DNA from: Nemertoderma westbladi
Lineage: Eukaryota; Animalia; Xenacoelomorpha
Direction of reading: 5' to 3'
Length of the DNA: 39,150 nucleotides
NCBI GenBank assembly: GCA_032718475.1
Contig: JAUCBJ010001627.1
Coordinates: forward strand, 1-39,150
The notes beneath the pieces are model-generated. The model did no database searches. It saw only the letters and a list, made by a program, of their open reading frames with translations, and was not told the DNA's origin. The position numbers were made by a program, and so were the translations under genes. Of the stretch, positions 2,801 through 34,282 are shown piece after piece (the stretch's first letter is position 1; every line of letters starts with the position of its first letter).

Positions 2801-3120
2801 GTGAGAGAGGAGAATCGTGATGGCGGGGAAACTATGAAGGAGTTTATCGTATTCCGTGGAGAGGGGCGGATAGATATGGTCCCAGATGACGTGGAGACAG
2901 TAGAGGATGATGGTGGGATAAGAAAGGGGTCAGGAGGGTCGAGTAGAACTATATTGCTGCATTTAGCGGCCATGAATGGAGATATTTTTCTGATTGACCT
3001 AGCGACCTATGGTAAGAAGACCGGGCCAAAGTTGAACCGCCTACCGGATGCGATGCAGAAGCTGGTAAGGTCAAAGACTATGATGGAGATTGGATCGGCG
3101 ATACGTGGCAACGCGGAGAG
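2801..3120 (+). pseudogene. N-terminal part of a DEDDy-like 3'-5' exonuclease ORF of the outer element
   Basis: PDDVETV (ExoI DxE), ILLHLAAMNGDIFLIDL, LPDAMQKLVRSKTMMEIGSAIRGN (ExoII region); cut at 3120 by the inner LTR. Confidence 0.7.
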
Positions 3121-4618
3121 TGTTGCCGTTATCCCAACACCAGGGGGGAAAAACGCCGATGCTGGAGACGTGACTTTACAGACCACCGAGCCCCGGCCAG
3201 TCACCGGATATTGATTGTGGAGAAGGAATGATTTCTGAGATGCAGGTTGCGGTTGAGAAAAAGCTGCATTAGTTGGATATACTCTTTAATGTAACTGAAC
3301 TCTGTTGAACCTGATTGAGAATAATTTTGGGCTTCCCCAAATCAATATACACCAAATATTCACAATAATTATACACGACAATATAAATCCCTACAGTATA
3401 TTATTTAATTACCCACTGTTCGCTCAGATTTTAGCCTAACTAATGTTCCCCAGATTTTCCCTCGGTCCTAGTCTTGATGCCGTAGTGTCGGTGTCGGTCG
3501 ACCCTGTCGCGTGTCCGTTCCACCCCTCCCGAACCCCGAAGGGAACGATCATCGAGAACCAGCACGGCTTGGCTAAGGGTCGGTCCAGTCGGTAGACTCT
3601 GTCGCGTATCCGTACCACCCCTCTCGAACCCCGAAGGGATCGGTCATCGAGAACCAGTACGGCTTGGCTAGGAGTCTGTCGTGTCGGTGGACCCGTTCGC
3701 GTGTCCGTCCAACCCCTCACGAACCCCGAAGGGTTCAATCATCGAGAACCAGTACGGCTTGGCTAGAGGTCCGTCGGTTCATCGCAGAAACCCAACCACC
3801 TAGGCTTTCCGAGTCCCTTTCAGGCTCGTAGTCGCTTCGGCAGCCGAGAAACTGCTCCGAACAGTCGGTAGGCCAGTAGAGTCTAGTCCTTTGTCTTTCG
3901 ACCCCGTCGCGTGTCCGTCCCACCCCTCACGAACCCCGAAGGGAACGATCATCGAGAACCAGTACGGCTTGGCTAAGGGGTCTGTCGTCGGTTCCCGTCG
4001 CAAATCCCTGGTGCAAGCAGCTGGCGTTCCGATGTCCTTTTCAGGCTCGTAGTAACTGCTGTTGACCAGAGACCGCTAAGGGCAGTCCTCGTCAAACCCT
4101 TCCTCTGTAAGTCGGTAGACCCTTTCGCGTGTCCGTCCCACCCCTCACGAACTCCGAAGGGAACGATCATCGAGAACCAGTACAGCTTGGCTAGGGGTCT
4201 GTCGTGTCGTTTCCCGTCGCAAGTCCCTGACACAAGCAGCTGGCGTTCCGATGTCCTTTTCAGGCTCATAATAACTGCTGTTGGCCAGGGACCGCTAAGG
4301 GCAGTCCTTGTCCTTTAGGCCTGGCGCGTTACCAAATCCACCTCTACAGGCAGCAGGAAGTTGGCCAGGGCCTAATAGTAATCAGGCTAACCTGAATACT
4401 GCTTGAATTTTCCATCCCCCTTGGCCCTTATAAACATGAAATTAGTCCCGTACCCTGTAAGTCGCCCCAAAGTTCGCCCATAAATCGCCCCCAGTTTATA
4501 GAATGTGCCCAAAACCCATGGTCCCGCACCCACCCAGTAGTAATATCGGAATAATCATTTTAAATTAATACAAAAAAATATTCAACTCGCGTTATGGAAA
4601 GTTGAAATACCGCGAACA
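3121..4618 (-). repeat. 3' LTR (1498 bp)
   Basis: Direct repeat of 16925-18418 with roughly 8 substitutions and 3 small indels counted by eye; TG...CA ends. Confidence 0.98.
3500..4199 (-). repeat. Five ~82-nt structured repeat units in LTR U3 (mirrored at 17304-18003)
   Basis: Units at 3500-3581, 3595-3676, 3690-3771, 3900-3982, 4118-4199, each closed by a self-complementary stem. Confidence 0.92.
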
Positions 4619-4627
4619 GTCCCCCCC
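4619..4627 (-). promoter_or_regulatory. Polypurine tract
   Basis: Minus strand reads GGGGGGGAC immediately before the TGTTCGCG start of the 3' LTR. Confidence 0.85.
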
Positions 4628-4792
4628 AATGACCTTCGTGAAGTCTGTCGGTAGATTGAGTTTGCGTAGGTCATTCCCAATATAAAAAACCCAAATTTAA
4701 TATTGCATAGTTTTAATTAATTTGGCCTAGAGTTTATATATATATGTATAAAAATAAATGTTCGATAAATGTTCCTGGAATATCCCGATCCA

Positions 4793-7393
4793 CTATTTCT
4801 TTCTCTGATACGCCTTTCGCCTCTTCGCCCGTCGGCTCTCATCGATCGCTATAGATGGTAGAGGAGCGTCAACATCCATCGTGAGCAACGCTTCGGCTTG
4901 TCTCCTGGCGGCTCTTCCTTTCGATGGCAGTGGGATCATATCGGATCGTTGTTCCAACTCGGAGTTGCGAGCCTCGAGGAACCACTCTCCGTCACCGAAC
5001 TCCTCTTTATACGAGTATAAGCGTCTAATGACTTCGAATGGGCCGAATAATCCAGCGCTCAGCAACAAATCCACGTAATGGAAAGGCAGCGTGGCCGACG
5101 TGTGGAGGCGTTCCGGGAAGGAGAAGTACCCGCACGCCATCTCCTGCGCGATATTCCGAGCGTTTCTCCGAACCTTGGTCTTTATGTGGCTGTTTGCGTA
5201 TGTTTCAAACATGACCATATTTCCCATAGTGGTAACGTCTTTGGTAGGACATTTGATATAGCAGCGGGGGCTAGAGGAATGTCCACGGAAACCGCACGTG
5301 GTGCAGAGGTTATATAGGATCGGACAGACGGAAACGTCGTGGCCCGATGTCGCGCAGTATGGGCAATAGAGTATCCCGAGGAGCTGGAGGCACGAATTGG
5401 TAACCCGATTCCTTCTACCGCGTGGGCACTGCTCCGAACCACAGTCGCCGCACACCTCCAACTGCATCTCTCGACTGGGAAATATCGGAATCGGGACGCC
5501 GACGTAATACTCGAGTCGCCGGTCGCTCTTCTGAATATTCGCGGTGGTCGGTAGCCCGCGGAAGGCTGAGCTTTTGCGTAGTAGGTCCTCGCTATGATAA
5601 CCTTCTTTGTGTCCCGTCGGTCTCAACTCGGACGACCGTTTCTGGCGGTGGATCCATTCGGTTTGCTCGGCGTACCAACGGGTTAGTCGCATAGGATCCT
5701 GAGGAACGGAGGGTGTAGTAGCCACCGCTGGTCGGCGAAGAGGTGCCGGGGTTTTCGACGGAGGGATTCCGAGGAGATCGTCGGGAGTCGGCGCAGCGCT
5801 GGGGCCCTTCTCGACCAATATCGCTGAGCGGGTACGTTGATTGCTGGTACTCAGAATCTCCGACGACCAGTCTTCGCCACCCGGGAAAGGATACGGGGAT
5901 AACCTTTGGCACGTATCGCCGAAGTCGTTTAACGCGAAGGTAGTAACCAACTCCCTCGCAGGGCTACCGAAGCCGAGTGGTGAGGAAACGCCCGCTTCCG
6001 TCGTTGGTTCGGCGGAGGCAACCCGTTTGGCTGCCGGTTGGTAAGCGGCCTCCGGCTCGAGTTGTCGCTTCGGGGTGGAGAGAAGAACACCCTCATTTAG
6101 CCATATTTCTTCCCCTTCCGACGAAATCAGAGGCTCCTCCGCACCGAGAAGATCGGTAATCGTAGGGATGTCGTAAGGTCCGCTCTCGTCCCAGGAATCG
6201 ATAACGGCGAGCGTTTTCGTCTCTCCCGGTGTGATGTTCTCAACCGCTTTGAACGCGTGGTTTATAACCTCGTTCCAGTCGTAGTCGACGAAGGAAAGAG
6301 GAACCGCCGTAATGAGGTTATCTAGAGTTTTACAGATAAATTTAGCGACGGTATAGCACTCCATAACGACGTAGACGTAGTTCCGTCGATCGGGATTCTC
6401 CCACCTTTGGTGTATCGTCCACTTCCGGTCAACGTCCTTCCATCGACCCTCTCGCTCGCTCTTTATTTCTAATCCCGGGTATCCACCATATATTTTATTA
6501 TAGTCCCGGAATTTCTGGGGTTTGAAGTCGATGCCGCCGTTTAGCACAGCGAGGTAGCCGATCCCGGATTTCGTCGGTCTCACCTCTCGGAATCCTCGCA
6601 TTAACTCGGCGAATCGTAACCAGGCTAGTAGCGTTTGAGTGTCGACGCAATGGCTAAGGGCGTTGAGGTCGTCTCGTCGGTTTCTTCCTGAAGGAGTGTT
6701 CGTATAGTTGTTCCGAACGTCCGCCTTTATATCCGACCCGATTTTAATGACGTCGAAGTCGAAGAGGATCTTTTGGATTTCCGGAGGTAGCAACCAGATC
6801 GCTCCGGCTGCCTGCACTTCCTGTCTGGGCGTCGGAAATATTCGACACACCAATACCAAACCGTCCAGTGTTCCGAGGATGACGACCAAGGATCGACCGT
6901 ATTCTTTCGCCCCGTACTTTTCTTGGTAGTCGTCGCGATTTTGGATGGTCGATATACGTTCCTCTCGAAGCGTCGCCGTACACTCCGACAGGTTTCCCCA
7001 GTGGGCGAGGTACGTACTCTTGTCGTCGACGAAACTTTGACATCTCGCCAACGTAATCGCTTTCGAGGTGGGCGTCGCGTTTCCCTCGTTGTCGTAGATC
7101 AAACATCGGGATCTGTAGACGCTTTGCCGGAACGTTTCCCAAAACGACGAATCGTCCCCTCCGGTTGCCTTTGCGTTCCGAGTTCTTTTCAGTCTCGTAC
7201 TAGCATCGGCTAACCGGAGGGCTCGTAGATTCTTGGAATCCGGTCCCTCTCGCCCGGTGAATTTAACGACTCGCACGTTCTCATTTAGCAGGGTGCTCCA
7301 ATTTGTATCAAAGTCAGGGGATCCGGGTTGCGAATATTCCAGTAGATCTATCGTGTTACGTAATTCGCCGATAATTTGGCGATTTGGGTCCAT
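4793..7393 (-). CDS. 866-aa accessory protein: DEDDy/RNase D/WRN-like 3'-5' exonuclease, Pro/Ser-rich linker, CCHC zinc-knuckle cluster
   Basis: Uninterrupted ORF, sense to pol. ExoI LIYDNEG; LPPEIQKILFDFDVIKIGSDIKAD (ExoII); CVDTQ; SGIGYLA; QRWENPDRRNYVYVVME (ExoIII-like, Yx3E); knuckles CPYCATSGHDVSVC (Cx2Cx4Hx4C) and CTTCGFRGHSSSPRC; basic C-terminus RRAKRRKAYQRKK. Confidence 0.88.
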   Translation of the reverse strand: MDPNRQIIGELRNTIDLLEYSQPGSPDFDTNWSTLLNENVRVVKFTGREGPDSKNLRALRLADASTRLKRTRNAKATGGDDSSFWETFRQSVYRSRCLIYDNEGNATPTSKAITLARCQSFVDDKSTYLAHWGNLSECTATLREERISTIQNRDDYQEKYGAKEYGRSLVVILGTLDGLVLVCRIFPTPRQEVQAAGAIWLLPPEIQKILFDFDVIKIGSDIKADVRNNYTNTPSGRNRRDDLNALSHCVDTQTLLAWLRFAELMRGFREVRPTKSGIGYLAVLNGGIDFKPQKFRDYNKIYGGYPGLEIKSEREGRWKDVDRKWTIHQRWENPDRRNYVYVVMECYTVAKFICKTLDNLITAVPLSFVDYDWNEVINHAFKAVENITPGETKTLAVIDSWDESGPYDIPTITDLLGAEEPLISSEGEEIWLNEGVLLSTPKRQLEPEAAYQPAAKRVASAEPTTEAGVSSPLGFGSPARELVTTFALNDFGDTCQRLSPYPFPGGEDWSSEILSTSNQRTRSAILVEKGPSAAPTPDDLLGIPPSKTPAPLRRPAVATTPSVPQDPMRLTRWYAEQTEWIHRQKRSSELRPTGHKEGYHSEDLLRKSSAFRGLPTTANIQKSDRRLEYYVGVPIPIFPSREMQLEVCGDCGSEQCPRGRRNRVTNSCLQLLGILYCPYCATSGHDVSVCPILYNLCTTCGFRGHSSSPRCYIKCPTKDVTTMGNMVMFETYANSHIKTKVRRNARNIAQEMACGYFSFPERLHTSATLPFHYVDLLLSAGLFGPFEVIRRLYSYKEEFGDGEWFLEARNSELEQRSDMIPLPSKGRAARRQAEALLTMDVDAPLPSIAIDESRRAKRRKAYQRKK

Positions 7394-7931
7394 ATTTACG
7401 ATTATATCCGTTACAAATTAGATCAGTTAATTATAAGTCCAGAAAGTCTGAAACTATAGTGATTGCAGAATAATTCAGTTCAGTTTATTAAATAACATTG
7501 CTATATAGGCATCTATCATCTTATTGCTAATACATTCAGCATTTATAGTTACTATAACTATACATTAATATCCAACCAGTTTTATGACTTTTTATGTCCT
7601 TTCTTTTTTCCAATTCTTTTCTTTAGACTTTTTTATACCTTTTTTTGTCTTTTTTCATTTCTCATTATTATTTCATCACATTTCATTTATTTCAACACAT
7701 TTCATCATTTAGTTCCACCATTTATTTCACATTTTGTTTATTTCCACATCATCATTGGGGTTATAGCCCCCCGGCTATCATCATTTGTTATAAGCGCAGC
7801 ACCAGGGTGCGCATCATTACATTTTCATCATCATACGCGTCATCATTCAGGTTTATAGTAGAGTTGTCTGATCCTTTTCATCATTTCCAACTACATTCAA
7901 TCATCTTCTTTGGTTAATCTTTGTCGTGGAA

Positions 7932-8331
7932 GGGGTGTTACGCGGCAATCTGGGATCTACAGCTGGGCTAGTTACACCGCCTACGCCCCAAACTGCACAC
8001 GTAACGGACAATGAAGACGCTGGAAGTGAAGTCACGTGGATGCACCAGGGACCCACCAGAATAACACTCCCAACAACATAAAGCTCAGTCGACGAAGTCA
8101 TGTGGGATGGGGTTACGCAACATTCTGGGATCTACAGCTGGACTAGTTACACCGCCTACGCCCCAAAATCCACGCAACGGTCCCACCAGAATAACGCGAC
8201 TGAGCAACATAAAACCCTCTATCGTCGAAGTCATGTGGATGCACCATGGACCCACCAGAATAACGGGATAGAGGGGGTGTTGCGCGGCAATCCGGGATCT
8301 ACAGCTGGACTAGTTACACCGCGTACGCCCC
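7932..8331. repeat. Three ~58-bp imperfect self-complementary repeats in the IN-ORF3 spacer
   Basis: Copies of ggggtgttacgcggcaatctgggatctacagctgg..tagttacaccgcctacgcccc at 7932-7989, 8109-8164, 8274-8331, interleaved with gaagtca(c/t)gtggatgcacca..gacccaccagaataac repeats. Confidence 0.85.
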
Positions 8332-8625
8332 GAACAGCGCACACAACGGACAACATAACATACTACAATGGATACAATGAATTCCACTTCAAATCTTTAC
8401 CATTTCCAATAATCCAATATCGTAGGTCCCGATGACCAAAATCAGGGTAAACAATACATAAACGACCCTGCGTCAGTCGAAACATCTGCAGGGTGACGCT
8501 GGACTCCACATAACACACGAGGAAACACAAATACCATTGTGTGGTTACAGTTGGTTTAAAGGGGGGTCCATTTTCATTGTCGATAAATCACAGTTTAAAG
8601 AGTTTGTCAACATGATGAGAAGGGT

Positions 8626-11600
8626 TTAAACGCATTTGTAATTGTCACCAATGTCTGCAGCAGGATCCTGAGTAGGGAACTTATCACCTCTCGTAGAGTC
8701 ACCACTGTCATTGCCTTCGAGAAGGCACAGCCTCTGGATAGGGCGTTGGTAGTGGCCCTTTTTATAATTGTCACCAATGTCTGCAGCAGGATCTTGAGTA
8801 GGGAACTTATCACCTCTCGTAGAGTCACCGCTGTCATTGCTTTCAAGAAGGCAGAGCCTCTGGATAGGGCGTTGGTAATGGCCCTTTGCCGTTCGTATCG
8901 TCACAGTCCTCGCAAGTCCGTCTTTACTCGGATGTATTGTCACAACTCGCGCCACAGGCCAGTGGACGCGGTCTTTAAGGTCTTCTTTTACTAGTACCAT
9001 GTCGCCAACTTCGACATTCCTGTAGGTGTTGTTCCACTTCCTCCTGGTCCGGAGGGTTATGAGGTACTCCTGGGCCCAGATTCTCCACCAATGCACTGCC
9101 AACGCTTGGGCCTTCTTCCAGTTTATATGTCTCGCAATATCATTGGGATCCGGAAACATTGTCTCCGGGAGAACATGAGTTTTAGGTCTCCCCAGTAGGT
9201 GATTAGGAGTAAGGGGCTCCAGGTCTGTGGGGTCGTCGCGGATAGGGACAATGGGTCGGTTGTTCAGGGTAGCCGTGATCTCGCAGAATGTTGTGCGGAG
9301 GGTGTCATGGGTTACCCGGGTGTCTCCTAGAGCGATGCGCATGGATCGTTTCACTAGGTCGATCAGTTTCTCCCATACCCCGCTCGTATGGGGCGCTAAG
9401 GGGGTTTGGAAGTGCCACTGTATCTGGTGTTCCTTCCAGACTTGGGATGCGGTGTTATCGGTAAACCATCCCTCGATCGCCTCTCTAAGTTCTCTTTCTC
9501 CTCCCACAAAGTTTGTGCCATTATCGGAATACATGTGACGACATGTCCCATTGCTTGCCACGAACCGACGCAGAGCGTTGATGAATGCGTGTTGCGTAAG
9601 GTTCACCACAATGTCTAGGTAGATTGCCCTAGACCTAAGGCATGTAAATATGGCCCCCAGCATTTGATGTTGGATCGTCGTTCAATGACCGTAAACGGAC
9701 CGAAACAGTCCACTCCGGTGACGTAGAATGGTGGGGAATCGGGCTGTAGACGGGTGGCTGGTAAGTCGGCCATCTTTTGTGTGAGTGGTGGCGCTAGATA
9801 TCTTCTGCAGATAAAGCAACGTTTCAACACTTTCCGGATCAGTGGCTGGATGTGTGTGATCCAATATCTTTGTCTTATATTAGCTATAATCCAGTTTTGT
9901 CCTGCGTGATGGTTCTCCTCGTGACATTGTTGAATTAATAGCTTGGCTAGTGTTGAAGTTCCGGGCAGAAGCGCCGGGTATTTAACCTCATATTCGACCG
10001 GGGCGTTTGCCATCCGGGTATTCAGTCGGATCAGTCCGTCCTCTCCCATCATTGGTCTCAGTTGGTAGACTGGGCTATCCGGTTTCAAGGTCTTGCCCAC
10101 ACTGAGTTGTTCCCACTCATCGGGGAAACTTTCTCTCTGGACATATCCAACGATACACTTCTCTGCGATAATGAGTTCTTGTATACTCCGTTGAACTATC
10201 GGCTTGTTGTCTTTCCACCTTAGGAAGTTGTGAAGGGTTATAATGTGGTGGATGAGCCGTCTCATTGATGAGGTTCGCTCGATCAACAGATATAAAGACG
10301 CCGCTGGTTGAATGATCGTCGCAACGTTATAGTGCCTGCCCGAGTCCTTTGCAGGCTCAGTCAGACAACTATAAATTTCCACTGCGTTGCTTCTATGGAT
10401 TTTACGGATCTCTTTATCGTCCTCGGAGTATTTTCCGCTATCGAGTTCGGGGTCGAATCGGGTACTCCATGTTAATTGTGGCTGTTGTAGGAATTCCGGG
10501 CCTGTAAGCCAGAGTTTACTTTTACCGAGTTGTTTTGGGGTGGCGCCTCGGCTTGATAAGTCCGCTGGGTTTTCTTTCCCGTTCACATGGTGCCACTGTT
10601 CTCGGCCGGTACACTGTTTAATCTCTGTGGCTCGGTTCGCAACAAACGTAGTGTGACGCCGTGATGGAGAGTGGAGATAATAGAGAACTATACTCGAATC
10701 GACCCAGAAGTGTTGAGACTCGATGGGGATTCGTAGGTTCCGCATGACCATGCGATTCTGTCTTACTGCCCAAACTGCAGCCTGTAGCTCGAGTCTTGGA
10801 ATCGTTGCTACGAATTCCCCGGATACTGTCTTGGCTTTAGAAAATAAGAAGCTCGTATCGCCGTTTCCATCGTTGCTGAGTCTTCGTAAGAAGGTGACTA
10901 CGCCAATTCCGGTATTCGAAGCATCCGAGAAGGTATGGAGCTGGAAGATATCGGTGGGTAGTTTATCGAGGAAGAACGGTCGAGGTATCCGCATAAGATG
11001 TAGGTGTTCGAGCTGCTCCGTCCATCCTCTCCACCTGACGCTGAGGTGTAGGGGGAGTTCTTCGTCCCATCCCAGTCCTTCTATCCACATTTCCTTAATC
11101 AGGTTCATTCCGGCCAAGGTTACTGGAGATATAAAATTTAGTGGGTCGAAGATGGCGCTTTTTATCAACAAACATCCCCTTTTTGTCATAGGCTTGGGTA
11201 GGGGTTTATATTTGAAAATGAATTCGTCTGATTCTATGTCCCATTCAATCCCAAGTACACGGTGTTCCACATCCTCCGAATACATTTTGTTATTTTCCAG
11301 TCGGATGTCCTCCGGAAACTTTTCCATAAGTGTTTTGTCGTGGGATCTGAACTTCACGAGCGGAAAACCTCCTTTCTTTAGACATTCTACCATCCCCATT
11401 GCTAGCTGATATGCCTCGTCCACATTATCTGCGCCGGCGCATCCATCGTCCACGTAAAAGCATCGTCGGATGGTTTCTATGACGGTTGGAGGGAACTCGT
11501 TTTCGCACATAGTTGCCGTCCTCTTCAGCATGTCACTGCATGCTACCAGCGAGTCCTTAGCACCGAAGATCCTGACGACCATACGCATTATGTCTACGTC

Positions 11601-12524
11601 CTTTATCGTAAGTTGACTAATCTCCTGTTGAGTTAGCGTTTTATCCGTACATAGGATACGTAGACAGTCTGAGTCTCTTGGTAGCGTACGAACTTGATGA
11701 AACATGGCCTTGATGTCGCAGGTGAATGCTACCCGGTTTTCCCTGAACCTGATCAGTACGCCGATGAGTGTACTATATATGTTGGGTCCCGTGTAAAGCT
11801 GACTGTTTAGGGATTCGCCCTGGTACATAGCGGCGGCATCATTTACCACTCGGATTTTCCCATCCTTCCGGGCTTCTACCACATAGTGGGTTGGGAGGTA
11901 ATATGTTCTTTTACCACCTTGCAGTTCATTCCGTGGTACCATTTCTGCTAATCCATCGTCGAGATATCCTTGGATTACGGTATTATATTTCTCCTTTATC
12001 TCGGGTTGGTCATTCAGCCGGCGTAGAATCCCCTTAAGTCGCCTAAGTGCCATGCTGGCGTTGTTTGCCATTGGTTTGTTTGGGTCCTTCCATAACATAG
12101 GTGAACACCAGTGTCCGTCTTTGAACGTGGCCTGGTTGAGAACGTCCATACAATATTGATCCTCTTCGGACGGGTTTTCGTCCTTTTCAGCGAACTCCTG
12201 GGTCTCTAGATTAAAGTATTTTGTCATCTCTTGTTGGGTTTTCTCGTTCTCCAGAAACAAATCCTCGTCAAGGTCCGTAGCTGAGCAATAACCCACGGAG
12301 GTTGCATTCTCTTTAATCTGACATTTGGGATATGTGTCAGTAGTTTCTTTCTTAATGCCGCAGAGTGTCCATCCCATTATTGTTCGTTCAGCGTAAAATC
12401 CATCATCCTGTTTTATAGATCGGGCGATATCTCCGGTGGGGATGTGTAGTTCCGGTGTATCAAGTCCGATCAGTAGAGTGATGCGGTTTACGTCCAACTG
12501 CGGACACCTCAGATCTACATCGTC
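8626..12524 (-). CDS. pol: Pol: reverse transcriptase, RNase H, integrase (one frameshift near 9654-9658)
   Basis: RT DIKAMFHQV, FG, FYVDD; RNase H TFSDAS, RLELQAA, WVDS, NPADLSSRG; IN HHCC (HEENHH...CFIC), GVDCFGP, SDNGTNF, GVWE. A G5 run one base short splits KCWG/AIFTCL and may be a sequencing error. Confidence 0.96.
8635..8886 (-). repeat. 126-bp in-frame tandem duplication at the integrase C-terminus
   Basis: Copies 8635-8760 and 8761-8886 encode KGHYQRPIQRLCLLE(S/G)NDSGDSTRGDKFPTQDPAADIGDNYK twice. Confidence 0.97.
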
Positions 12525-13492
12525 TCAGTCCAATTGTATGAGGGGGGCGTACTCGGCCGATTGTCGGAACCGCACTCGGAGGTCTGTATGTACCAAGGCG
12601 TTCTTGATGTTTAACTTAACCGTTTCGTAGCCCTTCATCACTCCTTCCATCTGGAGTTGCACCTCCCCGGACTCTACCTCTCTGTTATCGGTGATGGTTT
12701 GTATGGGCCGTTTACAAGGTTCATATTCTAGGCCGAGTTGCTCGAGGAAATCCCGGTCGATGATGGTTCCGTCAGACCCGTTATCAAGGAACGCGAGCGT
12801 CGTCAGGGATTTGCCAACTCCTTGAATCCTTACTGGGATTACCTTTGCGAAGACCATGTAGCGGCGATTTATAAGATTAATCGTGGCTGAAATATTTGTT
12901 ACTTGTGGTGTATCGGTGGAGATTTTAAACGGGTTGGTTTCTCTCCGTTGGGTTGTCCGGGTTCCTTTGAAAACGTGGTTCGTTTCTCCCCTTCGCTTGG
13001 CTTCGATCCGAAAGGGGAGGGTAGTGAAATCGAAGTTCGCGGGGATGTGGAGGAGCGTGTGGTGACGTTGGTCGTTACAGACGGCACAGCACGATCTTTG
13101 GTCGCAATCCCGAACATAGTGACCTGTTCCAAGACACCGGAAGCATCCTCGGTGTTTCATTATCGCCTCGAAGCGTGGGACAAGTTCGGCGAACTGAAAC
13201 TTCCTGCAGAATTCCACTTTATGTTTCTCTCCACAGAAGAGACAGAGGAGGGAGTTTGTGATGCCTTCCCTCTCGGGTGCCCAATTCGCAAGGTAACAAC
13301 ACGCCCATTCCTCGGCGGATGTCGGTTCCTCGTAGTCTTCGTCGTCGGAATCCTCGGCCATGGTGATGGCCATCGTACTCACCGGTGGGGGGCGGAATCT
13401 CGGTTTCGGAGGGGGTATCTTACTCCTGGAGTTGCTCTCTATTAAATCCAACTTGGCGAGACTCTGTTTTGAAAACATCGAGTCATTCATGG
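12525..13492 (-). CDS. gag: Gag C-terminal triple zinc knuckle and aspartic protease; in-frame TGA at 12525-12527
   Basis: CLFCGEKHKVEFC, CFRCLGTGHYVRDC, CAVCNDQRHHTLLH (BEL signature); protease AFLDNGSDGT; same frame as the RT ORF. Confidence 0.95.
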
Positions 13493-14670
13493 TGTAAAAG
13501 CTTTTGCGGATATACTCAGTCCCCCTCGCCCGCAAGGTACCGTTATAGGTGTTTTAACGGACATAAAAGTCATTCTTCGATATGTGTGCTTTGGTGGACA
13601 TGGTAAGGCAAAAAACCCGCAATGCGTAAAATACCCTGGCACAGCTTAGCCTTGATGATTCAGATTACGACATCTAACAGCTGGTTGCTGACATGGAAAC
13701 GGCCATTGGACACATGGTTTTTTGTTTAGCTTAACAGCCAATCAGAGCGATTTTTTCTGTCGATGTGGAGATATTTGGCCGATCGTGCTAGGAGTGTTCA
13801 GTCTTACTGTTTTTCTTGATACTATTGTGTTGTTTCTATCTAGGCCAGGAACACCAGCTCACCGGCTCTAGAGTCAATTCGTTTCAGACTTTGGAAGAAA
13901 CATTAGTAGGCTTAAATTATAGAGCGTATAACTGTTATCTCAGTTCAGTCTTACATTATCGGTTTAACATACATTATTATACTGCTATTTACTGTTGTCA
14001 TTGTTGTATCAGTTGGTTGAATATTATTTGGAGAACATCTATAAAGAACCCAAATTTCCCAATTTTCTTGATACACTACAGGTTAGAGAGACGGGTTACA
14101 TATAGCGATTGCGACTTATATTATTGTGGTTTGTAGTGAATTTAATGCTATTTGGTAAGCACTACATGAGTCAGTTGCTGTTCTCTTTATATATGATAAA
14201 ATTCATTGACGGTCGGCAAATTAGTGAGCAGTATTGTGTGTTACCGGTAGTGTGCATGATTGTGACTGATAACTAAGCATTTCCTAAAGAATGCGCCTCA
14301 TACGTGAATCATAAGCCTTACCGACTTACCGTTGTGTTTAGTACAAGTCATATCTCTGTTTACCTAGATAGAGCGCCACGTCCTAAAGGAACTGTTAATA
14401 TTTCCCGAAAGTGAATAATATTAGTCAGAAATTATTATTAACGATCAATCGAATAATACAGTAAGCTTACACTGCAATAATAATCTAAGCCCTCAGAATC
14501 CAGTCTCCCGGGTATATCCAGCGGGTGAATGGACGCGCACTAGGCTGGCTTCTGCTAATGTTGTGTTTATTGGTATTAAATATTTGTCAATTTCTAAAGT
14601 CTATTTATAAACCAAAAGACATATAAATTTTGGCAGGTTAAACTGCTAAAGGTCTTCAAAAGCGCGTACA
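13493..14670 (+). mobile_element. Solo LTR (1178 bp) of an unrelated family inserted in gag
   Basis: TGTA...TACA termini; 5-bp TSD CATGG at 13488-13492 and 14671-14675; removal restores DDISEAM-NDSMFS in frame; non-coding. Strand is inferred from TCAGT Inr-like motifs and ATTAAA at 14575-14580. Confidence 0.9.
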
Positions 14671-16488
14671 CATGGCTTCGGAGATATCATCCAGGAATGC
14701 CGACATTTCAAGGAAGCTAGGATCTCGATCTGGATGTCTGCGCCGGAGATCTACGCATTTATAAGCCCACTTACTTTGTAGCCATCCGGGGAACTTCCGG
14801 GCGATCTGTCGGAGGTTTAGAATGTTGTTCAACTGGTCCTCCTTATTTAAGGGTTTCAGAGTATAGTAGGCATCCTTCATAGAGTCGGAGAATTCCTGGA
14901 TGTTCTGTGGGTCCCCTAGTGATCCCGCGTCCTGTATCAGTCTCTCTAGAGTTTTATTAATTATAGTTCCGGTATTTCCGTATCTTTTATCTAGAGTTTT
15001 CCATGCGTCATAGTATGCCTCATGAGAACCTCCCTCAAAACATGCAATAATTCTGCGTGGTTTGTCACCCAGGTATTGCGACAAATATACCAATTTCTGT
15101 GCGTCGGCTATGCCCGTTGATCCAATCTGCGCAAAGAACCGTTTCTTGAATCTGAGGTAATCGACGGGATCTCCTTCGAAGGTGCGGATCTCCATCTTAG
15201 GCATGGCAAGGCGGTTTTCCAACGCCTGGATAATACTGACGTCGTCTGAACTGGAGTGACTCGGAGGGTTATAGTTATTGGCACTCACTCCCATACTCGA
15301 TGGATCAATGATAGGTGGAGTTTTAATGATGACGCGACTACGGATTTGTGGTGTGGATGTAAATGGGTTGTTGGATCGGGGAGTGGTGTCCCGTTCCGAG
15401 TCCCTTTCAGGCTCGTACTTGGGTACACTCGTTGTCGTGGGGTTGGATGGGAAACACGGTTCCTCATTTTTCAGCGTAACCGGTGGAGGATGGAACACCG
15501 GTGCTTGTGCCGATAACGTAGACTGTATGGTAGGCGGGATCTCGGGTTTCGGAAGTTTCGCCGCTGTTGGTGTAAATGACTTCTCTAATTCCGGTACCAG
15601 GATTGGTTCATATTCATGATCTATATCCCTTTCCCAGTCCTCATAGAGTTGAATATCTCATTCTATAAGTGCGGCTTCGTACTCCGCGAGTTTCGCGATA
15701 TCCGCATTCTTTTTGTGTATGAGAATCGCTTGGGCCTCGGCGTGTTGTTTACGCATTTCTGCTTCCCATTTACGTTGTTCGATCTCTCGTTCGGCCTCTC
15801 GTCCACGTTGTGCGGCCTGCCGTTCGGCCTCTTGTTCGGCCTCTCGTTTTTGCATTTCGGCGGCTAATACATCTTGCTCGGTTTGCAGTTGAATATACTC
15901 ATCTTCCATCTGAGCTTTGAGGGCTAATGCCTTCCGTTCTCGTAGCTGGTCTCGGAGTGGTTGACCCCCTTGAGAGCTGTGTGCTGAACCGGACACCGCG
16001 CTCCTAGCGCTGGAGTGCTGATTTCTAGAGGACCCCATTCTCTTTCGATATACTGCTGTCCTGGTGCTGGAGGTTCGCACTGATTCTGCGTCTGTTCTTT
16101 CAGCTCTCTTGTAGTACTGTTCTTCGTAGCCCCTCACGAGGCTAAGGGTCCTCCGGTGTTGTTTGCGGAATTCGTCTAGGCGTGCAACGTGTTCTTCCAA
16201 TTTGGGATAATTTACCTGGTCGGTGGCGGGGATGAGTTCTTGGTACGCCTGTATCATTCTCTCATATCTTTGTAAGATACTTCGGATACTCTGAAGCTGA
16301 GTTTGTATCTCGTTGAGGGGGGTTTCGACTCCCTTGAGTTGTTTCTCTATACGTTGGTACGCTCGAGTGACTCCGCCTTTGAGAGCACCTAGTCGACGAG
16401 CCATGTTCTTGATGTTCGGTACCTCGTCGGTTTCCGAGTCTGTGTGGTGATCGATCTCGTCGGTATCGGATACGTTATTTGTCGTCAT
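14671..16488 (-). CDS. gag: Gag N-terminal coiled coil and DUF1759-like capsid region; in-frame TGA at 15658-15660
   Basis: ORFs 15658-16488 and 14656-15498 share a frame separated by one TGA; PKMEIRTFEGDPVDYLRF, KLVYLSQYL, AWKTLDKRYG. Confidence 0.93.
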
Positions 16489-16676
16489 TGTAGCGCCTCG
16501 TCGATAGCTAGATATGCGATGTCATAAAACAGTTCCTCGTAGGTATTGTACTCAGCTTGGACCACCCGAACGGTAATCCTGAATCGTCCGACGTTCGTTC
16601 CTTGTACTTCAACCTCGACGTGCCAGATTCCTGGCTCAACTTGGATTATATTAATGGGTGTGATCGATACTTCCAT
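16485..16676 (-). CDS. 63-aa upstream ORF overlapping the gag start (ATGA)
   Basis: Its TGA (16487-16485) overlaps the gag ATG (16488-16486); protein-like amphipathic pattern; no recognised homology. Confidence 0.45.
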   Translation of the reverse strand: MEVSITPINIIQVEPGIWHVEVEVQGTNVGRFRITVRVVQAEYNTYEELFYDIAYLAIDEALQ

Positions 16677-16909
16677 TCCCTGTTAACAACTCTCCAAATA
16701 TGTGATCTGCCGACTACGAGTTGGTTAGATCGAGTTTGTTGATTAATTAAACCACGACTTAGTCTTAACTCAAATACCAGAGTTTCCTCGTAGTGGGTGC
16801 TGGCAAGCACGTAGAGAGTTTTGAAGAGTATTGTAGGATTCTCAACTTCCACCAGTTGAAGTTGGCCGCGTTTTATTCTCAATTTTGACACCCTGTCAAA
16901 ATTGACTGT

Positions 16910-16922
16910 AATTATTCTCAAT
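16910..16922 (-). promoter_or_regulatory. Non-tRNA primer-binding site candidate (self-priming)
   Basis: 2 nt inside the 5' LTR edge; minus strand ATTGAGAATAATT, no TGG; exact reverse complement of LTR 17118-17130. Confidence 0.7.
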
Positions 16923-16924
16923 TT

Positions 16925-18418
16925 TGTTGCCGTTATCCCAACACCAGGGGGGAAAAACGCCGATGCTGGAGACGTGACTTTACAGACCACCGAGCCCCGG
17001 CCAGTCACCGGATATTGATTGTGGAGAAGGAATGATTTCTGAGATGCAGGTTGCGGTTGAGAAAAAGCTGCATTAGTTGGATATACTCTTTAATGTAACT
17101 GAACTCTGTTGAACCTGATTGAGAATAATTTTGGGCTTCCCCAAATCAATATACACCAAATATTCACAATAATTATACACGACAATATAAATCCCTACAG
17201 TATATTATTTAATTACCCACTGTTCGCTCAGATTTTAGCCTAACTAATGTTCCCCAGATTTTCCCTCGGTCCTAGTCTTGATGCCGTAGTGTCGGTGTCG
17301 GTCGACCCTGTCGCGTGTCCGTTCCACCCCTCCCGAACCCCGAAGGGAACGATCATCGAGAACCAGCACGGCTTGGCTAAGGGTCGGTCCAGTCGGTAGA
17401 CTCTGTCGCGTATCCGTACCACCCCTCTCGAACCCCGAAGGGATCGGTCATCGAGAACCAGTACGGCTTGGCTAGGAGTCTGTCGTGTCGGTGGACCCGT
17501 TCGCGTGTCCGTCCCACCCCTCACGAACCCCGAAGGGTTCGATCATCGAGAACCAGTACGGCTTGGCTAGGGGTCCGTCGGTTCATCGCAGAAACCCAAC
17601 CACCTAGGCTTTCCGAGTCCCTTTCAGGCTCGTAGTCGCTTCGGCAGCCGAGAAACTGCTCCGAACAGTCGGTAGGCCAGTAGAGTCTAGTCCTTTGTCT
17701 TTCGACCCCGTCGCGTGTCCGTCCCACCCCTCACGAACCCCGAAGGGAATGATCATCGAGAACCAGTACGGCTTGGCTAAGGGGTCTGTCGTCGGTTCCC
17801 GTCGCAAATCCCTGGTGCAAGCAGCTGGCGTTCCGATGTCCTTTTCAGGCTCGTAGTAACTGCTGTTGACCAGAGACCGCTAAGGGCAGTCCTCGTCAAA
17901 CCCTTCCTCTGTAAGTCGGTAGACCCTTTCGCGTGTCCGTCCCACCCCTCACGAACCCCGAAGGGAACGATCATCGAGAACCAGTACGGCTTGGCTAGGG
18001 GTCTGTCGTGTCGTTTCCCGTCGCAAGTCCCTGACACAAGCAGCTGGCGTTCCGATGTCCTTTTCAGGCTCGTAATAACTGCTGTTGGCCAGGGACCGCT
18101 AAGGGCAGTCCTTGTCCTTTAGGCCTGGCGCGTTACCAAATCCACCTCTACAGGCAGCAGGAAGTTGGCCAGGGCCTAATAGTAATCAGGCTAACCTGAA
18201 TACTGCTTGAATTTTCCATCCCCCCCTGGCCCTTATAAACATGAAATTAGTCCCGTACCCTGTAAGTCGCCCCAAAGTTCGCCCATAAATCGCCCCCAGT
18301 TTATAGAATGTGCCCAAAACCCATGGTCCCGCACCCAGTAGTAATATCGGAATAATCATTTTAAATTAATACAAAAAATATTCAACTCGCGTTATGGAAA
18401 GTTGAAATACCGCGAACA
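16925..18418 (-). repeat. 5' LTR (1494 bp)
   Basis: Direct repeat of 3121-4618; minus-strand TATA-like GTATATT near 17148-17154 and ATTAAA at 17094-17089 suggest long U3, short R, ~150-nt U5. Confidence 0.98.
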
Positions 18419-18672
18419 GAGAGGATTATTGGACTGGGCACCCCGAATGAATAAATGTTAAAATGTTAATGTTAGATCTTCTGGACATGCAGGTAGTCTA
18501 CATGGCTATGACGAAACCTGATGGAAGAGGATTGATGGATAACACGGGACAATATGGGGCCGTGGCGATGGGTCAGTTGATGGGACTCACGTGCCACAAG
18601 CCGATGGAGTGGAACAAGTTCCAAGAGGAATACGGTGAGGGACTTGCGGATTCACTCAAGTGGGGGGCGTGA
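18419..18672 (+). pseudogene. Continuation of the outer element's exonuclease ORF
   Basis: LLDMQVVY...GQYGAVAMGQLMGLTCHKPMEWNKFQEEYG aligns with inner ORF3 CVDTQTLL...TKSGIGYLAVLNGGIDFKPQKFRDYNKIYG; stop and aaatgtta micro-duplication frameshift at 18452-18475. Confidence 0.7.
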
Positions 18673-18710: not shown

Positions 18711-19951
18711 TTAAGACACATCGTGTAGACGAATATATAATATACGTACTATAGTCAAGTACAACATTTTTCCAATTAGCTACTGGGACTGGGGACTAAT
18801 TGACTAGAACAGGAGGACGAGACATTAGACGGATCCCATTTCTCAAGTGTGGCCACACTAATGAGAATGTGGGAGCCCAACAGGAGCGTACGGAGAGTGA
18901 GATCAAAGGGGGTTGAGTATTGGGGAAGTATGGAAGGGGAGGTACGAGAGTTAAAGGGGGGGAAACTAAAGAGTGTGAGGCCTGAGTGTAGGGAGCGAGC
19001 GGAGAGGAGGATGAGTCCTAAGGGACTAGTGAGGGAGGAAGGGACAGCAAAGTCCGATAGGTACAATTGTGTGAGGAGTGACGGCGATCATCTAAAACAG
19101 AGACGCCAGATGCCTTGGTACAGCATAGCTCGCATATGTACCAAGGATGGGTAGTGAAAACAGACCCATGGGGGCTGGCCTGGAAAGCCGACCCCAAGAA
19201 AAAAAAATTCCACCCCACATCCAATAATATTAGATTGGATTCAAGCGGAATTGAAGCGCACTTAAGGTTGATGCTATCTTCTTACTGGGAAGATAGCATG
19301 GGGGGGGGGGGGGTTGTAAGCGGATTCAATTCCCTGCACTACCCACCCAAAATGGGACTAGTGGCATTTTACCAATATAGTTGGCGAGGTGACATTACCA
19401 ATAATAATGTCACCTCACAACCAACTAAGGCGATACATGCCGCAAGCCACAGGGAGAGTTGAGAGGTCAAACCATCTCAGAGGGACAAACAGGCTAGCAA
19501 GGCTAGCACATGGGGATAGTGGCAACAGGGAGTGGCGAGGTGACAATTAATCAGGTTAAGCCAATGGTGGGTGGGAGAGCATATTGGGAGTGATTAGAGC
19601 GCATCTATTGGACACTCAGGCCACTCAGTAGTGTAGAGCTGATTTGTATGTGTTAATAATAATATAACCGTTGCAGTTATTGATTCTGATTCAGTTGGTT
19701 TTCCTATACAGTTGTGAGACCGGAACAGTTTTTAACCATCGTCGTCGTCACTACCGTGCTATTATATTCTGACTGTGCTATTATTACGTTCTGTGATTAT
19801 AAAGACTGACAGTAAAAACTCAATTATTTGAACGGCCTTTGGCCTATTACATATCCAGACTACAGCTTTAGCAGCCTACGGACGCTGCGACGCATATAAC
19901 TCACACACCGGTCGGGATTCATTACTGCCAACTCTGTTGGATCACGTTTCA
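18711..19951 (+). repeat. Putative degenerate 3' LTR of the outer element
   Basis: Follows purine tract GAAAGGGGGGG and ends TTTCA where a different repeat starts; no TG at the left edge and no partner LTR in the window. Confidence 0.35.
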
Positions 19952-20783
19952 TTAAATGTCATCAAATGGGTTCAAACTTAGTTAGATACCAAAATTTCAT
20001 TTTTATTTTTATTTTTTAAGGGGATTAGTGCCACAGGCACATGGCCAGAACCTACCATTTGGCGCAAGTGATGATTATTCTCAATTTTCGCGATGGCCAA
20101 CTTTGATTTCTCCTACTGCATTAATATTGTGATCATTAGAACCGCAATGACCAATTTAGTGGGTGTAGACACCTTAAAAACAAACGTAGAGCGAATAGTT
20201 CTTGAGATATCGCAGAAAATGTGACACAAGCACAAGTCTACATTACCGCCTTGATGTGATAATGGACAAATACACTAAAAATGATATTTGAATTATCTCA
20301 AGGAATCAAGAATAGACACATCACAGAAATGATCGATATAGTGGGTGCAGACATCTTCAAAATAAGAGTAGAGTCATTAGTTCTTGAGTTATTTTATAAA
20401 ATGTCAAGACTATGTCCACAATTTAATACTTGATATTGAGTTGACCCATTCCACACATTTTGTACAAAAACTATAGTGAATTAATCACTGCTCTTTAATT
20501 TTGAAGGTGTCTGTATACACATACTTAATATTTTCTGCATATCTCAAGAACTTTCACTCTTTTGATGGTGTCTACCCCCACTAAATCGGTCATTACTGTT
20601 CTAATGAGCATAATACAGTATTAATGCCGTAGGAGAACTAAAAGCTGTCCATCACCAAAATTGAGAATAAGGTATTGCCAATGGGTAGGTTCTGGTCATG
20701 TGCCTGTGGCACTTCTTCCCTTCGTCCCAAAATCAAAATTTTGGTATCTAACTAAGTTTGGACCCATTTGATGACGTTTGATG
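19950..20783. mobile_element. Foldback/MITE-like element with ~250-bp imperfect inverted arms
   Basis: gtcatcaaatgggttcaaacttagttagataccaaaattt and agtgccacaggcacatggccagaacctacc at left are mirrored at 20684-20776. Confidence 0.85.
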
Positions 20784-24077: not shown

Positions 24078-25675
24078 GCCTTTGCAGAAGTGAAGGCTGC
24101 TGCAAAGAGCATTAAGACCAATCGTGCCAGTGGAGTAGATGGTGTTCCCCCTGAGGTCTTTAAAATACTAATAAAAGAGGTGTTTAAAGCTCATCTATCC
24201 CATCATAGTAGACATGTACCGTACAACAAGAGTCCCACAAGAAATGAAAACAAATAAGTTGGTGCCAGTTCCCAAGAAGGGCAACCTAACACTCTATGGT
24301 TCTTTTCGGGGAATCTCATTGATCTTGATTGCTGCAAAACTATACAATAGGATTCTATTAAATCGCATCAGGGATCCCATTGAGAGACTGCTCCGTGGAA
24401 ATCAGAATGGGTTCCGTAAAGGTCGTGGGACCATGGAGCCCATTTTGGCACTTAGAAGGATAATTGAAGAGTTATCAAAAAAGAAAGACAGGCATCTGGC
24501 TGTTATCTTTGTTGACTTCTTCAAGGCCTTTGATTCAGTCTCTCGCTCACGTATGTTCAGCATACTTTCATTATATGGGATTCCTGATGAAATTATTGCA
24601 GCAATCAGATCAGTATACGATGGTTCGACAACATTTGTGTCTACTGTTGACGGTGACACAGAACCATTTGAAGTGTTATGGGGCATCCTCCAAGGAGACA
24701 CACTTGCACCATTCTTGTTCATTATTGTGGTTGACTATGTTCTACGCATGTCCTTAGATCATCATAATGATGATGGGGTGATGATAACTCCACCTACTGG
24801 CTCCAGAAGTCGAGGAAATCCTGCCAAGTACCTAACTGATCTAGACTTTGCTGATGACTTAGGAGTACTCTCAGAATCATTAGAGGGAGCCCAACGGCTC
24901 CTCAGCTCATTAGAACATGCTGCTTCTAGTGTTGGTCTTTTTATTAACTCCAGAAAGACCAAAATTCTGACAGTTAACTTTGAAAGTCCCCAGCAAGTCT
25001 CTGATCGGATGAGCATAAGCTCAAAAGATGGTATGCTTGAGCATGTGGATGACTTCTGTTACCTGGGATCATGGATCCGGAAGTCAGGTGAGGACCTTCG
25101 AATACGTAAGGAGGGAAAGGCATGGGCAGCCTTGAATAGGCTTTCCAGGATTTGGAAGTCACCTAGAATTAATCGGAAACTTAAGGTCCGATTATTTAGA
25201 GCAGCAGTAGTTCCAGTACTCCTCTACGGGAGTCCATGCTGGGCTCTAACTGCTGAGGACACCAAATCTCTGGATGCCACATTCACAAGAATGCTACGCC
25301 GGGTTCATTGTGTCAAGTACAATGCACACATCTCCAACCAGACACTATATAACATTGGAGGTGTCTCATTGGTTCCCCCAAGCTTGACACTAGAACAAAA
25401 TCGCCTCCGCTTTGCAGGACATTGCTTTCGCCGTGAGGACCAGCCAGTGCATAATCTTGTACTTTGGCAGCCTCATGGAGTGAATAAGCATGGTGGACAG
25501 CCCATGACTTTCTTGAGACGCATCTTAAAGGACACTGGCCTTAAAGATGCGGATGATCTAGCAAATGTCATGTGTGATAGGGAGTTGTGGCGGTGCAATT
25601 TTGTTGACAAGCCGGCACAGCATTCTTAAAAATGCAGCTGCAATGCAGCATGCCGATCCTAGTAGTAGTAGTAGT
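24075..25675 (+). mobile_element. 5'-truncated RTE-like LINE; RT ORF 24214-25629, (AGT)n tail
   Basis: ASGVDGVPPE, FRGISL, QNGFRKGR, FVDFFKAFDSV, QGDTLAPFLF, DFADD, YLG; short 3' UTR ending (AGT)5 at 25661-25675. Confidence 0.92.
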
Positions 25676-33552: not shown

Positions 33553-34017
33553 AATTGGATGAAATGACCTAGAATGTGCTAAACCATGGTAAACTTAGAT
33601 CACGATACCTGAAGCGACCAAGAAACGACCTGACACGAGCTGAAACGACAATAAAAACTACATAATGTAAACTGTGCTAAAACCATGAACTTAGGCCTAC
33701 TGTAGATACTTGGTGAACTGGCTATTTTCATATGCCACAGACAGCCACATGTCCCTAAAAGGTGCCACGTATCACCACTAGGTGCCACTAAAAGGTGCCA
33801 CGTCCCAAAATATCAATTCACAGCGCCTTTCTATCATCTATCTACTTGAAATCTACTATTAATATACTAGGTATAAGTGTATAATTGTTATGATTATAAT
33901 GTTCTGATGTAATTATAACTGATACAAGCAAATAATAAATGTTCTTTACATTTTACTGATAGAGGTCAAATCAAATCCCCCAAGTTATCCCCCCTCCTCA
34001 ATTTTCAATTTTGCTCA

Positions 34018-34282
34018 AAGTCCCAGACTAGTTAACCAGTCAACTTAGTTGTTCACGTGCTGCTCGAACCTCGAAGTCCCAGACTAGTTAACCAGTCAGC
34101 TTAGTTGTCAAGTGCTGCTCGAAGCCCCAGAATAGTTAACCAGTCAGCTTAGTTGTTCACGTGCTGCTCGAAGTCCCAGACTAGTTAACCAGTCAGCTTA
34201 GTTGTTCACGTGCTGCTCGAAGCCCCAGAATAGTTAACGAGTCAGCTTAGTTTTTTACATGCTGCTCGAAGCCCCAGAATAG
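34018..34282. repeat. Minisatellite, ~50-bp unit, about 5 copies
   Basis: aag(t)cccaga(c/a)tagttaaccagtcagcttagttgttcacgtgctgctcg repeated. Confidence 0.95.

Follow-up and report, generated by a model that had tools for sequence, protein, structure and literature searches.

The locus described here raises the question of how a retrotransposon could start reverse transcription when the site expected to bind a tRNA is complementary to the element's own long terminal repeat (LTR). The window, by which we mean the whole stretch of DNA that was analysed, comprises 39,150 nt of Nemertoderma westbladi (assembly GCA_032718475.1, contig JAUCBJ010001627.1, positions 1-39,150 of the forward strand). It contains a 15.3 kb LTR retrotransposon on the minus strand, bounded by two LTRs (3121-18418); all features of the element given below lie on that strand. 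Comparison of the two LTR copies delimits a 5' LTR of 1494 nt with TG...CA termini (16925-18418), from which the 3' LTR (3121-4618) differs by eight substitutions and three indels. The element is flanked by the target-site duplication GAGAG, with its left copy at 3116-3120 and its right copy at 18419-18423, and it is this duplication together with the two LTR copies that fixes the edge of the 5' LTR. A polypurine tract, recognised from its sequence, precedes the 3' LTR at 4620-4627.

Gag-like frames extend over 14656-16521, with a stop between the two and a DUF1759 match in 14656-15657. They are followed by a Cys/His-rich region with an aspartyl protease (PF13650; 12525-13553), by a reverse transcriptase, RNase H and integrase zinc-finger region (PF05380 Pao and PF17921; 9615-12524) and, in a different frame, by an integrase core with DUF5641 that carries a terminal 126-bp tandem duplication (8626-9681). 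The domain order in the element is PF13650, PF05380, PF17921, PF18701, PF03564. A further frame, ORF3 (4793-7417, 874 aa), joins a weakly 3'-5' exonuclease-like N-terminal part to a Cys/His-rich C-terminus. The gag-pol of this copy is disrupted by stops, by the frame change and by some 1.1 kb without a long ORF; this AT-rich stretch (13554-14655), which separates the gag and protease frames, is probably an insertion.

The ICTV Belpaoviridae profile describes BEL/Pao elements as tRNA-primed, with an 18-nt primer-binding site (PBS) that pairs with the 3' end of tRNA-Arg or tRNA-Gly; it gives 0.2-1.2 kb for the LTRs and 4.2-10 kb for the genome, and calls their replication poorly understood (PMC8742986). 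The window element shares with that description the Gag-PR-RT-RH-IN order, the Pao peptidase, DUF1759, DUF5641, the paired TG...CA LTRs and the polypurine tract, and it has the affinity of its reverse transcriptase and a target-site duplication in common with BEL/Pao as well. It differs in having no TGG and no such 18-nt tRNA site, in its LTRs of 1.5 kb and total length of 15.3 kb, and in its exonuclease-like ORF3. The Pao-type domains and the lack of a chromodomain match separate it from the Ty3/gypsy chromoviruses. On its protein sequences we file the element as BEL/Pao, and we read the missing tRNA PBS as a gap in the family description. PF05380 was present in all 120 homologs among the matches listed, at 27-36% identity; because of this divergence, the domains, the near-identical LTRs and the GAGAG duplication, we judge from the sequence that the element inserted recently and belongs to a divergent BEL/Pao family, one that is present in high copy number in contigs from one organism.

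Several other features of the window were recorded. The U3 of each LTR (17296-18013 and 3492-4209) holds five GC-rich units of about 95-100 nt, each with a sense-strand C-UUCG-G-type hairpin in which two of 28 predicted pairs show two-sided changes and for which there was no Rfam match. Outside the element lie an ORF for a LINE-type reverse transcriptase (24175-25629; PF00078, weak DUF6451), a pair of direct repeats of 1.3 kb with an internal piece inverted, together with 59 copies of (CGAC)n at 37828-38064 (37020-39054), and satellite-like tandem arrays at 1477-2405 and 34004-34286, with periods of 173/427 and 49, respectively.

Read on the sense strand, the LTR terminus CAACA is followed by a 2-nt spacer and then by 13 nt at the primer-binding position (16910-16922). 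An earlier note on this DNA had pointed out that no TGG is found at this position, that the 13 nt two bases off the LTR edge are the perfect reverse complement of LTR positions 17118-17130, and that a TATA-like motif and an ATTAAA lie around the latter segment. All three observations stand: no TGG occurs within 5 nt of the LTR end, the complementarity is exact, TATATT starts at 17153 and ATTAAA at 17094. The candidate self-primer segment (17118-17130) lies 193 nt before the LTR end and has a copy within the 3' LTR at 3314-3326, and ATTAAA, a candidate polyadenylation signal (17089-17094), follows it after 23 nt. Among 12,306 interior positions (12.3 kb), the longest stretch complementary to the LTR is the 13-nt PBS itself, with runners-up of 11 nt. 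A match of at least 13 nt starting 0-5 nt from the edge was obtained in none of 5000 dinucleotide shuffles for the whole LTR, and in one of 5000 for its AT-rich last 330 nt. The layout also agrees with the Tf1-type rule of at least 10-11 nt complementary to the element's own LTR and starting 0-5 nt from its edge, here with 13 nt and a 2-nt spacer.

The surroundings of the PBS were searched for other candidates. A second PBS-like copy, which the earlier note had overlooked, lies in the leader 39 nt downstream of the PBS (16871-16885), where it is partly buried in a hairpin; it matches the primer over 11 nt (16883-16873), and was rejected as a working site at a predicted pairing probability of 0.00. 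A leader hairpin just 3' of the PBS (16881-16903) is predicted at a pair probability of 0.96. The leader varies within the family at 16860-16910: one contig skips 44 bases that include the hairpin and the second PBS-like copy, and another contig end may hold an extra unit. A primer of the window element extended across a splice junction was likewise rejected, the best spliced match being 6 nt and no such joint being listed in the family contigs. ARAGORN detected no tRNA in the window, which disposed of an element-encoded tRNA primer; for some nematode BEL-type elements, a self-encoded primer resembling a tRNA has been reported. An Rfam search was negative for the whole window at the gathering score, and for 16700-18420 even at E <=1.

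Variation within the family was read from contigs of three samples aligned to 16870-17170, with 61 loose ends left out of the listing. No substitution at or above 2% was listed in 16910-16924, while 16907-16909 were variable. The primer segment has one common change, at 17121 (about 85-90% of LTR depth in three runs and 67% in a fourth), which turns a G-C into a G-U pair; all 13 pairs are retained, and the energy of the AU-rich primer/PBS duplex goes from -12.1 to -9.9 kcal/mol. A PBS-like copy with a change that matches 17121 was found at one contig end, and none was listed at the PBS itself. Rare loose contig ends carry changes that break one or two primer/PBS pairs. Low variation as such fails to single out the primer, because 17131-17170 is equally without a listed substitution. 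Taken together, within-family variation is mildly supportive of the pairing.

Covariation between PBS and LTR was read from distant relatives and not from sister families, because the window element is phylogenetically isolated. A metagenome scan with a pol alignment provided 79 loci (from the best 80 of 575 confirmed stretches); viral contigs searched for relatives gave 39 pattern matches, none of which was confirmed. Nine of the 79 loci, in which the 5' LTR end was set from two LTR copies, form a fixed set. One end in it was placed by hand (L030, score 11) and two are less firm (in L062 the 3' copy stops at the contig end, and in L076 the position of the end is uncertain to within a few bases); L058 and L062 are sisters. 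Five loci with long direct repeats that are not LTR-like were excluded (L005, L021, L022, L033 and L041). No TGG occurs within 5 nt of the LTR end in any of the nine fixed-set relatives. In all nine the PBS pairs with the element's own LTR over 10-12 nt, and every PBS sequence is different. With the window element included, own-LTR pairing is 10-13 nt in 10 of 10 elements. Cross-pairs among these ten average 5.7, with a maximum of 9 and none of 90 reaching 10 (permutation 0/100,000). Complementarity is thus kept with different letters in related families, a check that the earlier note had proposed, and its claim of tRNA-independent self-priming in a BEL/Pao lineage gains support at the sequence level from this element-specific pairing. 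Control leads from the flanks or from deeper in the leader scored 4-7, the exception being the window's second copy at 11.

The LTR segment is contiguous in three of the nine relatives, and in the other six it becomes continuous only if a GT...AG intron, 71-186 nt long and containing a pyrimidine tract, is taken out. Its distance to the LTR end in the fixed set is 87-216 nt where computed (193 nt in the window element). Twelve further families, set B, were chosen by eye for the match, which makes them circular for the core match itself; they comprise ten spliced and two contiguous cases. Contiguous, chance-like matches of 10-13 nt were dropped from the source of this set (for example L005, L007, L010, L019, L023, L057 and L058), as was a 30-nt inverted match in L022. 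Across 22 families, set B included, the segment terminus is AC in 20 and AT in two, one of them the window element; the spacer is 0-3 nt, and in 13 of the 22 the segment is followed within 60 nt by a poly(A)-type hexamer. Five more loci have a known LTR start and an end that is not fixed; three of them reach 10 and two do not (L007 with 8, L075 with 7). At about position 312, L075 has a possible TGG-type primer site and no self-match. In L042 (1-326 and about 6690-7103), one LTR copy has, up to the primer junction, an intron-type stretch that terminates in AG, and in the other copy the two sides are joined; the two look like spliced RNA copied into DNA, and, being 88% alike, may be an assembly mix.

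In a tree of RT-RNase H sequences with 105 rows (L069 and L065 are absent, having no HSP of at least 330 aa), elements with the layout are dispersed through a large group, to which proteins from fish, molluscs, corals and brachiopods belong as well. The contiguous forms are scattered, with six changes for six rows, a pattern that fits repeated intron loss. The window element is a long branch of unsure placement, at most 40% identical to any row. The proposal that self-priming arose independently in this lineage is not borne out, since the layout is found across a broad group of BEL/Pao relatives.

The start of the transcript determines what the primer would be. The zone upstream of the segment (17148-17189) is AT-rich and promoter-like, with TATA-like hexamers at 17189, 17177 and 17153; an initiator-like TCAGTT lies at 17102, below the segment. 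Canonical spacing from TATATT at 17153 would place the start inside the primer, and initiation at TCAGTT would place it below; the latter motif is a sign against a start upstream of the segment. A TATA-like hexamer occurs within 60 nt in 10 of 22 families, in only two at -29 to -33, and at no fixed spacing. In the relatives, the sequence 5' of the perfect match pairs with the element's own post-PBS leader better than with the leaders of others (-7.7 against -5.6 kcal/mol; permutations 3/20,000 for 22 families and 964/20,000 for 10 independent ones), extending about 15 nt upstream of the perfect match and fading beyond about 25 nt. No such extension is seen in the window element, which ranks 15-21 of 22. 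Because own-leader pairing extends 5' in relatives and TATA spacing is not fixed, comparison of these sequences speaks for a primer that exceeds the perfect match in length and, because the pairing runs about 15 nt further 5', for a transcription start that is probably somewhat upstream of 17130. The same two observations leave the earlier proposal that the primer is the very first 13 or so nucleotides of the RNA, with a start at 17128-17131, unsupported.

Folding predictions were obtained for a range of starts. The PBS duplex has a predicted probability of 0.87-0.95 when the transcript begins at 17130-17135 and of 0.54-0.84 when it begins at 17150-17165; transcripts from 17180 or any point farther upstream are predicted to lose it (0.01-0.07). 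In these longer transcripts, a degenerate upstream copy of the primer (17175-17162) is a predicted competitor for the PBS that would pair in the primer's own register, and these models make it possible that the copy (17162-17175) acts as an off-state for priming. A 6-bp hairpin is predicted to adjoin the 5' side of the primer (17130-17145), where no substitution at or above 2% was listed in the family contigs; it was listed by a bacterial promoter scan, the rest of which is irrelevant here. Folding of the whole region is unremarkable (z -1.96, with 3 of 100 shuffles as good).

We consider it likely, and with good confidence, that the window element starts reverse transcription with its own RNA by some form of self-priming, because a tRNA-type site is lacking and the 13 bases in its place pair exactly with the element's own LTR. 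The specific route that we also hold to be likely is priming by a piece of the element's own 5' RNA, with 17130-17118 paired to 16922-16910 and released by an internal RNase H cut. Transcription would start in the 5' LTR within about 17130-17165, shortly upstream of the segment; the position that we would guess is about 17146, 30 nt below TATAAT at 17177, and a transcript from there would open with the small hairpin. Folding of this RNA would then pair 17130-17118 with 16922-16910 and loop out the remaining R and U5. Cleavage immediately 3' of 17118, for which the element's own RNase H is the probable enzyme as in Tf1, would provide a free 3'-OH, which the reverse transcriptase would extend over the 2-nt spacer and U5; following strand transfer, the segment would be regained from its copy in the 3' LTR. 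The window element would represent the intron-less form of a layout common to many BEL/Pao relatives, the majority of which would have to remove an LTR intron to assemble the pairing segment. We lean slightly towards a broader reading as well, namely that a large animal branch of BEL/Pao primes with its own 5' RNA, longer than the 11 bases of Tf1, and not with a tRNA; that most members have the host spliceosome join the primer from two LTR exons; and that the window element belongs to this branch as a deeply divergent form without the intron, whose duplex would be switched on or off by where transcription starts, via the competing upstream copy.

An alternative source for the primer would be a second genome copy, through its 3' R end, or a short LTR-only RNA acting in trans, trimmed as far as the duplex by a 3'-5' exonuclease of the host or from ORF3 without any internal cut. 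The poly(A)-type hexamers that follow the segment in 13 of 22 families would place it near 3' tips, LTR depth far above PBS depth in the family contigs is consistent with many solo LTRs, ORF3 resembles an exonuclease, and a start at TCAGTT below the segment would be compatible with such a scheme. It is nevertheless an improbable account, as the layout occurs in relatives without ORF3, and as ORF3 lacks the acidic first-motif pair of its two relatives (weak evidence, from a three-sequence alignment). Moreover, the 3' copy of a single RNA could not serve as both spliced primer and unspliced template, so that two RNAs would be needed; the persistence of introns in relatives would favour a 5'-derived primer with an unspliced 3' template. 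The pairing could also be real and selected and yet structural, as a packaging or dimerisation fold or switch, with a host tRNA fragment or other host RNA as the primer. Half-tRNA priming without a TGG is known from the Osser, Bryco and Bianca copia lineages (PMC6317226), and the leader here has a hairpin and a duplicated PBS-like copy. Against this, ten different PBSs match their own LTRs in the same register where a tRNA primer would make them converge on a small number of host RNAs, and a stem over the PBS would block a tRNA; we regard a purely structural role as quite improbable.

The match might, lastly, have nothing to do with the pairing in relatives, being an inverted pair of a recurrent AT-rich DNA motif, such as a site for a host protein, or the product of chance. 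The earlier note had cautioned that the match is AT-rich and that the same 15-mer occurs in an unrelated repeat at 20074-20088 (plus strand), which is true and proves sharper than it was put. That repeat, outside the element, is a foldback- or MITE-like structure with long imperfect inverted arms (19950-20783), and the 15-mer is present in its other arm too (20656-20670). Of 13,786 15-mers of the element, three are found elsewhere in the window, all of them from the PBS motif, and the 14-15-mer occurs twice in the leader in addition to both arms. An empirical null for a match of this length and position, drawn from the repeat-rich window, also gives 1.0% (6269 plus-strand positions) and 0.7% (6269 minus-strand positions), the element is isolated in the tree, and its segment ends in AT and not in the usual AC. 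That the motif alone explains the match is nonetheless unlikely: the 2-nt spacer, the length of 13 nt, the distance of 193 nt and the downstream poly(A) hexamer are all as in the relatives, and there is no alternative TGG site despite a young, high-copy family. Priming by the element's own 5' RNA remains the reading that we prefer.

The suggestion that self-priming is possibly linked to the exonuclease did not find support, because relatives that bear the layout are without ORF3: none of the 79 loci (from the best 80 of 575 confirmed stretches) gave an ORF3 match at E <1, and in the 14 loci, of 17 checked, that have a detected polypurine tract only about 0.9-1.3 kb separate the end of the pol match from that tract. 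The protein itself scored 0.92 in the ESM Atlas to a cluster with PF01612 in half its members. The window protein has no Pfam match and nothing relevant in the PDB, a homolog search returned no match, a search of representatives returned three weak matches (one a short repeat match), and both structure models have a pLDDT of 33-34. The two informative distant relatives are P0122 and P0123, of which the former likewise combines an exonuclease-like part with a zinc knuckle. The rotifer LTR retrotransposons Juno and Vesta have a DEDDy exonuclease ORF3 with intact catalytic residues; the word 'priming' does not appear in their description (PMC5408684). Like them, the window element carries an extra ORF resembling an RNase D/WRN-type 3'-5' exonuclease between pol and the 3' LTR; in contrast, Juno and Vesta belong to other LTR lineages, and the window ORF3 is weakly assigned and seems to have lost its first acidic motif. 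ORF3 is probably incidental to priming.

Self-priming is known from Tf1 and Tf2 of Schizosaccharomyces pombe, Tj1 of S. japonicus and the Tf1/sushi group, in which the PBS pairs with 11-13 nt of the element's own LTR and not with a tRNA (PMC7175516, PMC4600332, PMC5341516); the Tf1 primer is released through RNase H cleavage (PMC7175516). The LTR-adjacent PBS complementary to the own LTR is common to those elements and to the one described here, but they are Ty3/gypsy chromoviruses, whereas the window element is BEL/Pao by its domains and many of its relatives need splicing. Self-primers have also been predicted for the plant elements Tcn1 (Ty3/gypsy) and TAR/Houba/Osr-1 (Ty1/copia), under a rule that the window element likewise follows, of at least 10 nt complementary to the LTR and located 0-5 nt after the 5' LTR; they differ in superfamily and host kingdom, and the available portion of that survey describes no splice-junction form (PMC6317226). 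A metazoan BEL/Pao survey contains no occurrence of primer, PBS, tRNA, intron or exonuclease (PMC3118150), and no BEL/Pao self-primer appears in the accessible parts of five further papers (PMC3601003, PMC8220671, PMC4558846, PMC6934838, PMC3286476). In a literature search that covered few subscription papers, we found no report of a self-priming BEL/Pao element; such a case may be recorded in repeat-database annotations.

The feature itself is real, and what is new is probably the occurrence of a known self-priming mechanism in a superfamily described as tRNA-primed. If this reading is true, tRNA-independent priming would reach a third LTR superfamily, after gypsy (Tf1/sushi, Tcn1) and copia (TAR). 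The annotation of BEL/Pao elements would change, because LTR finders often score a tRNA PBS, and the intron-bearing relatives would tie reverse transcription to the splicing machinery of the host.
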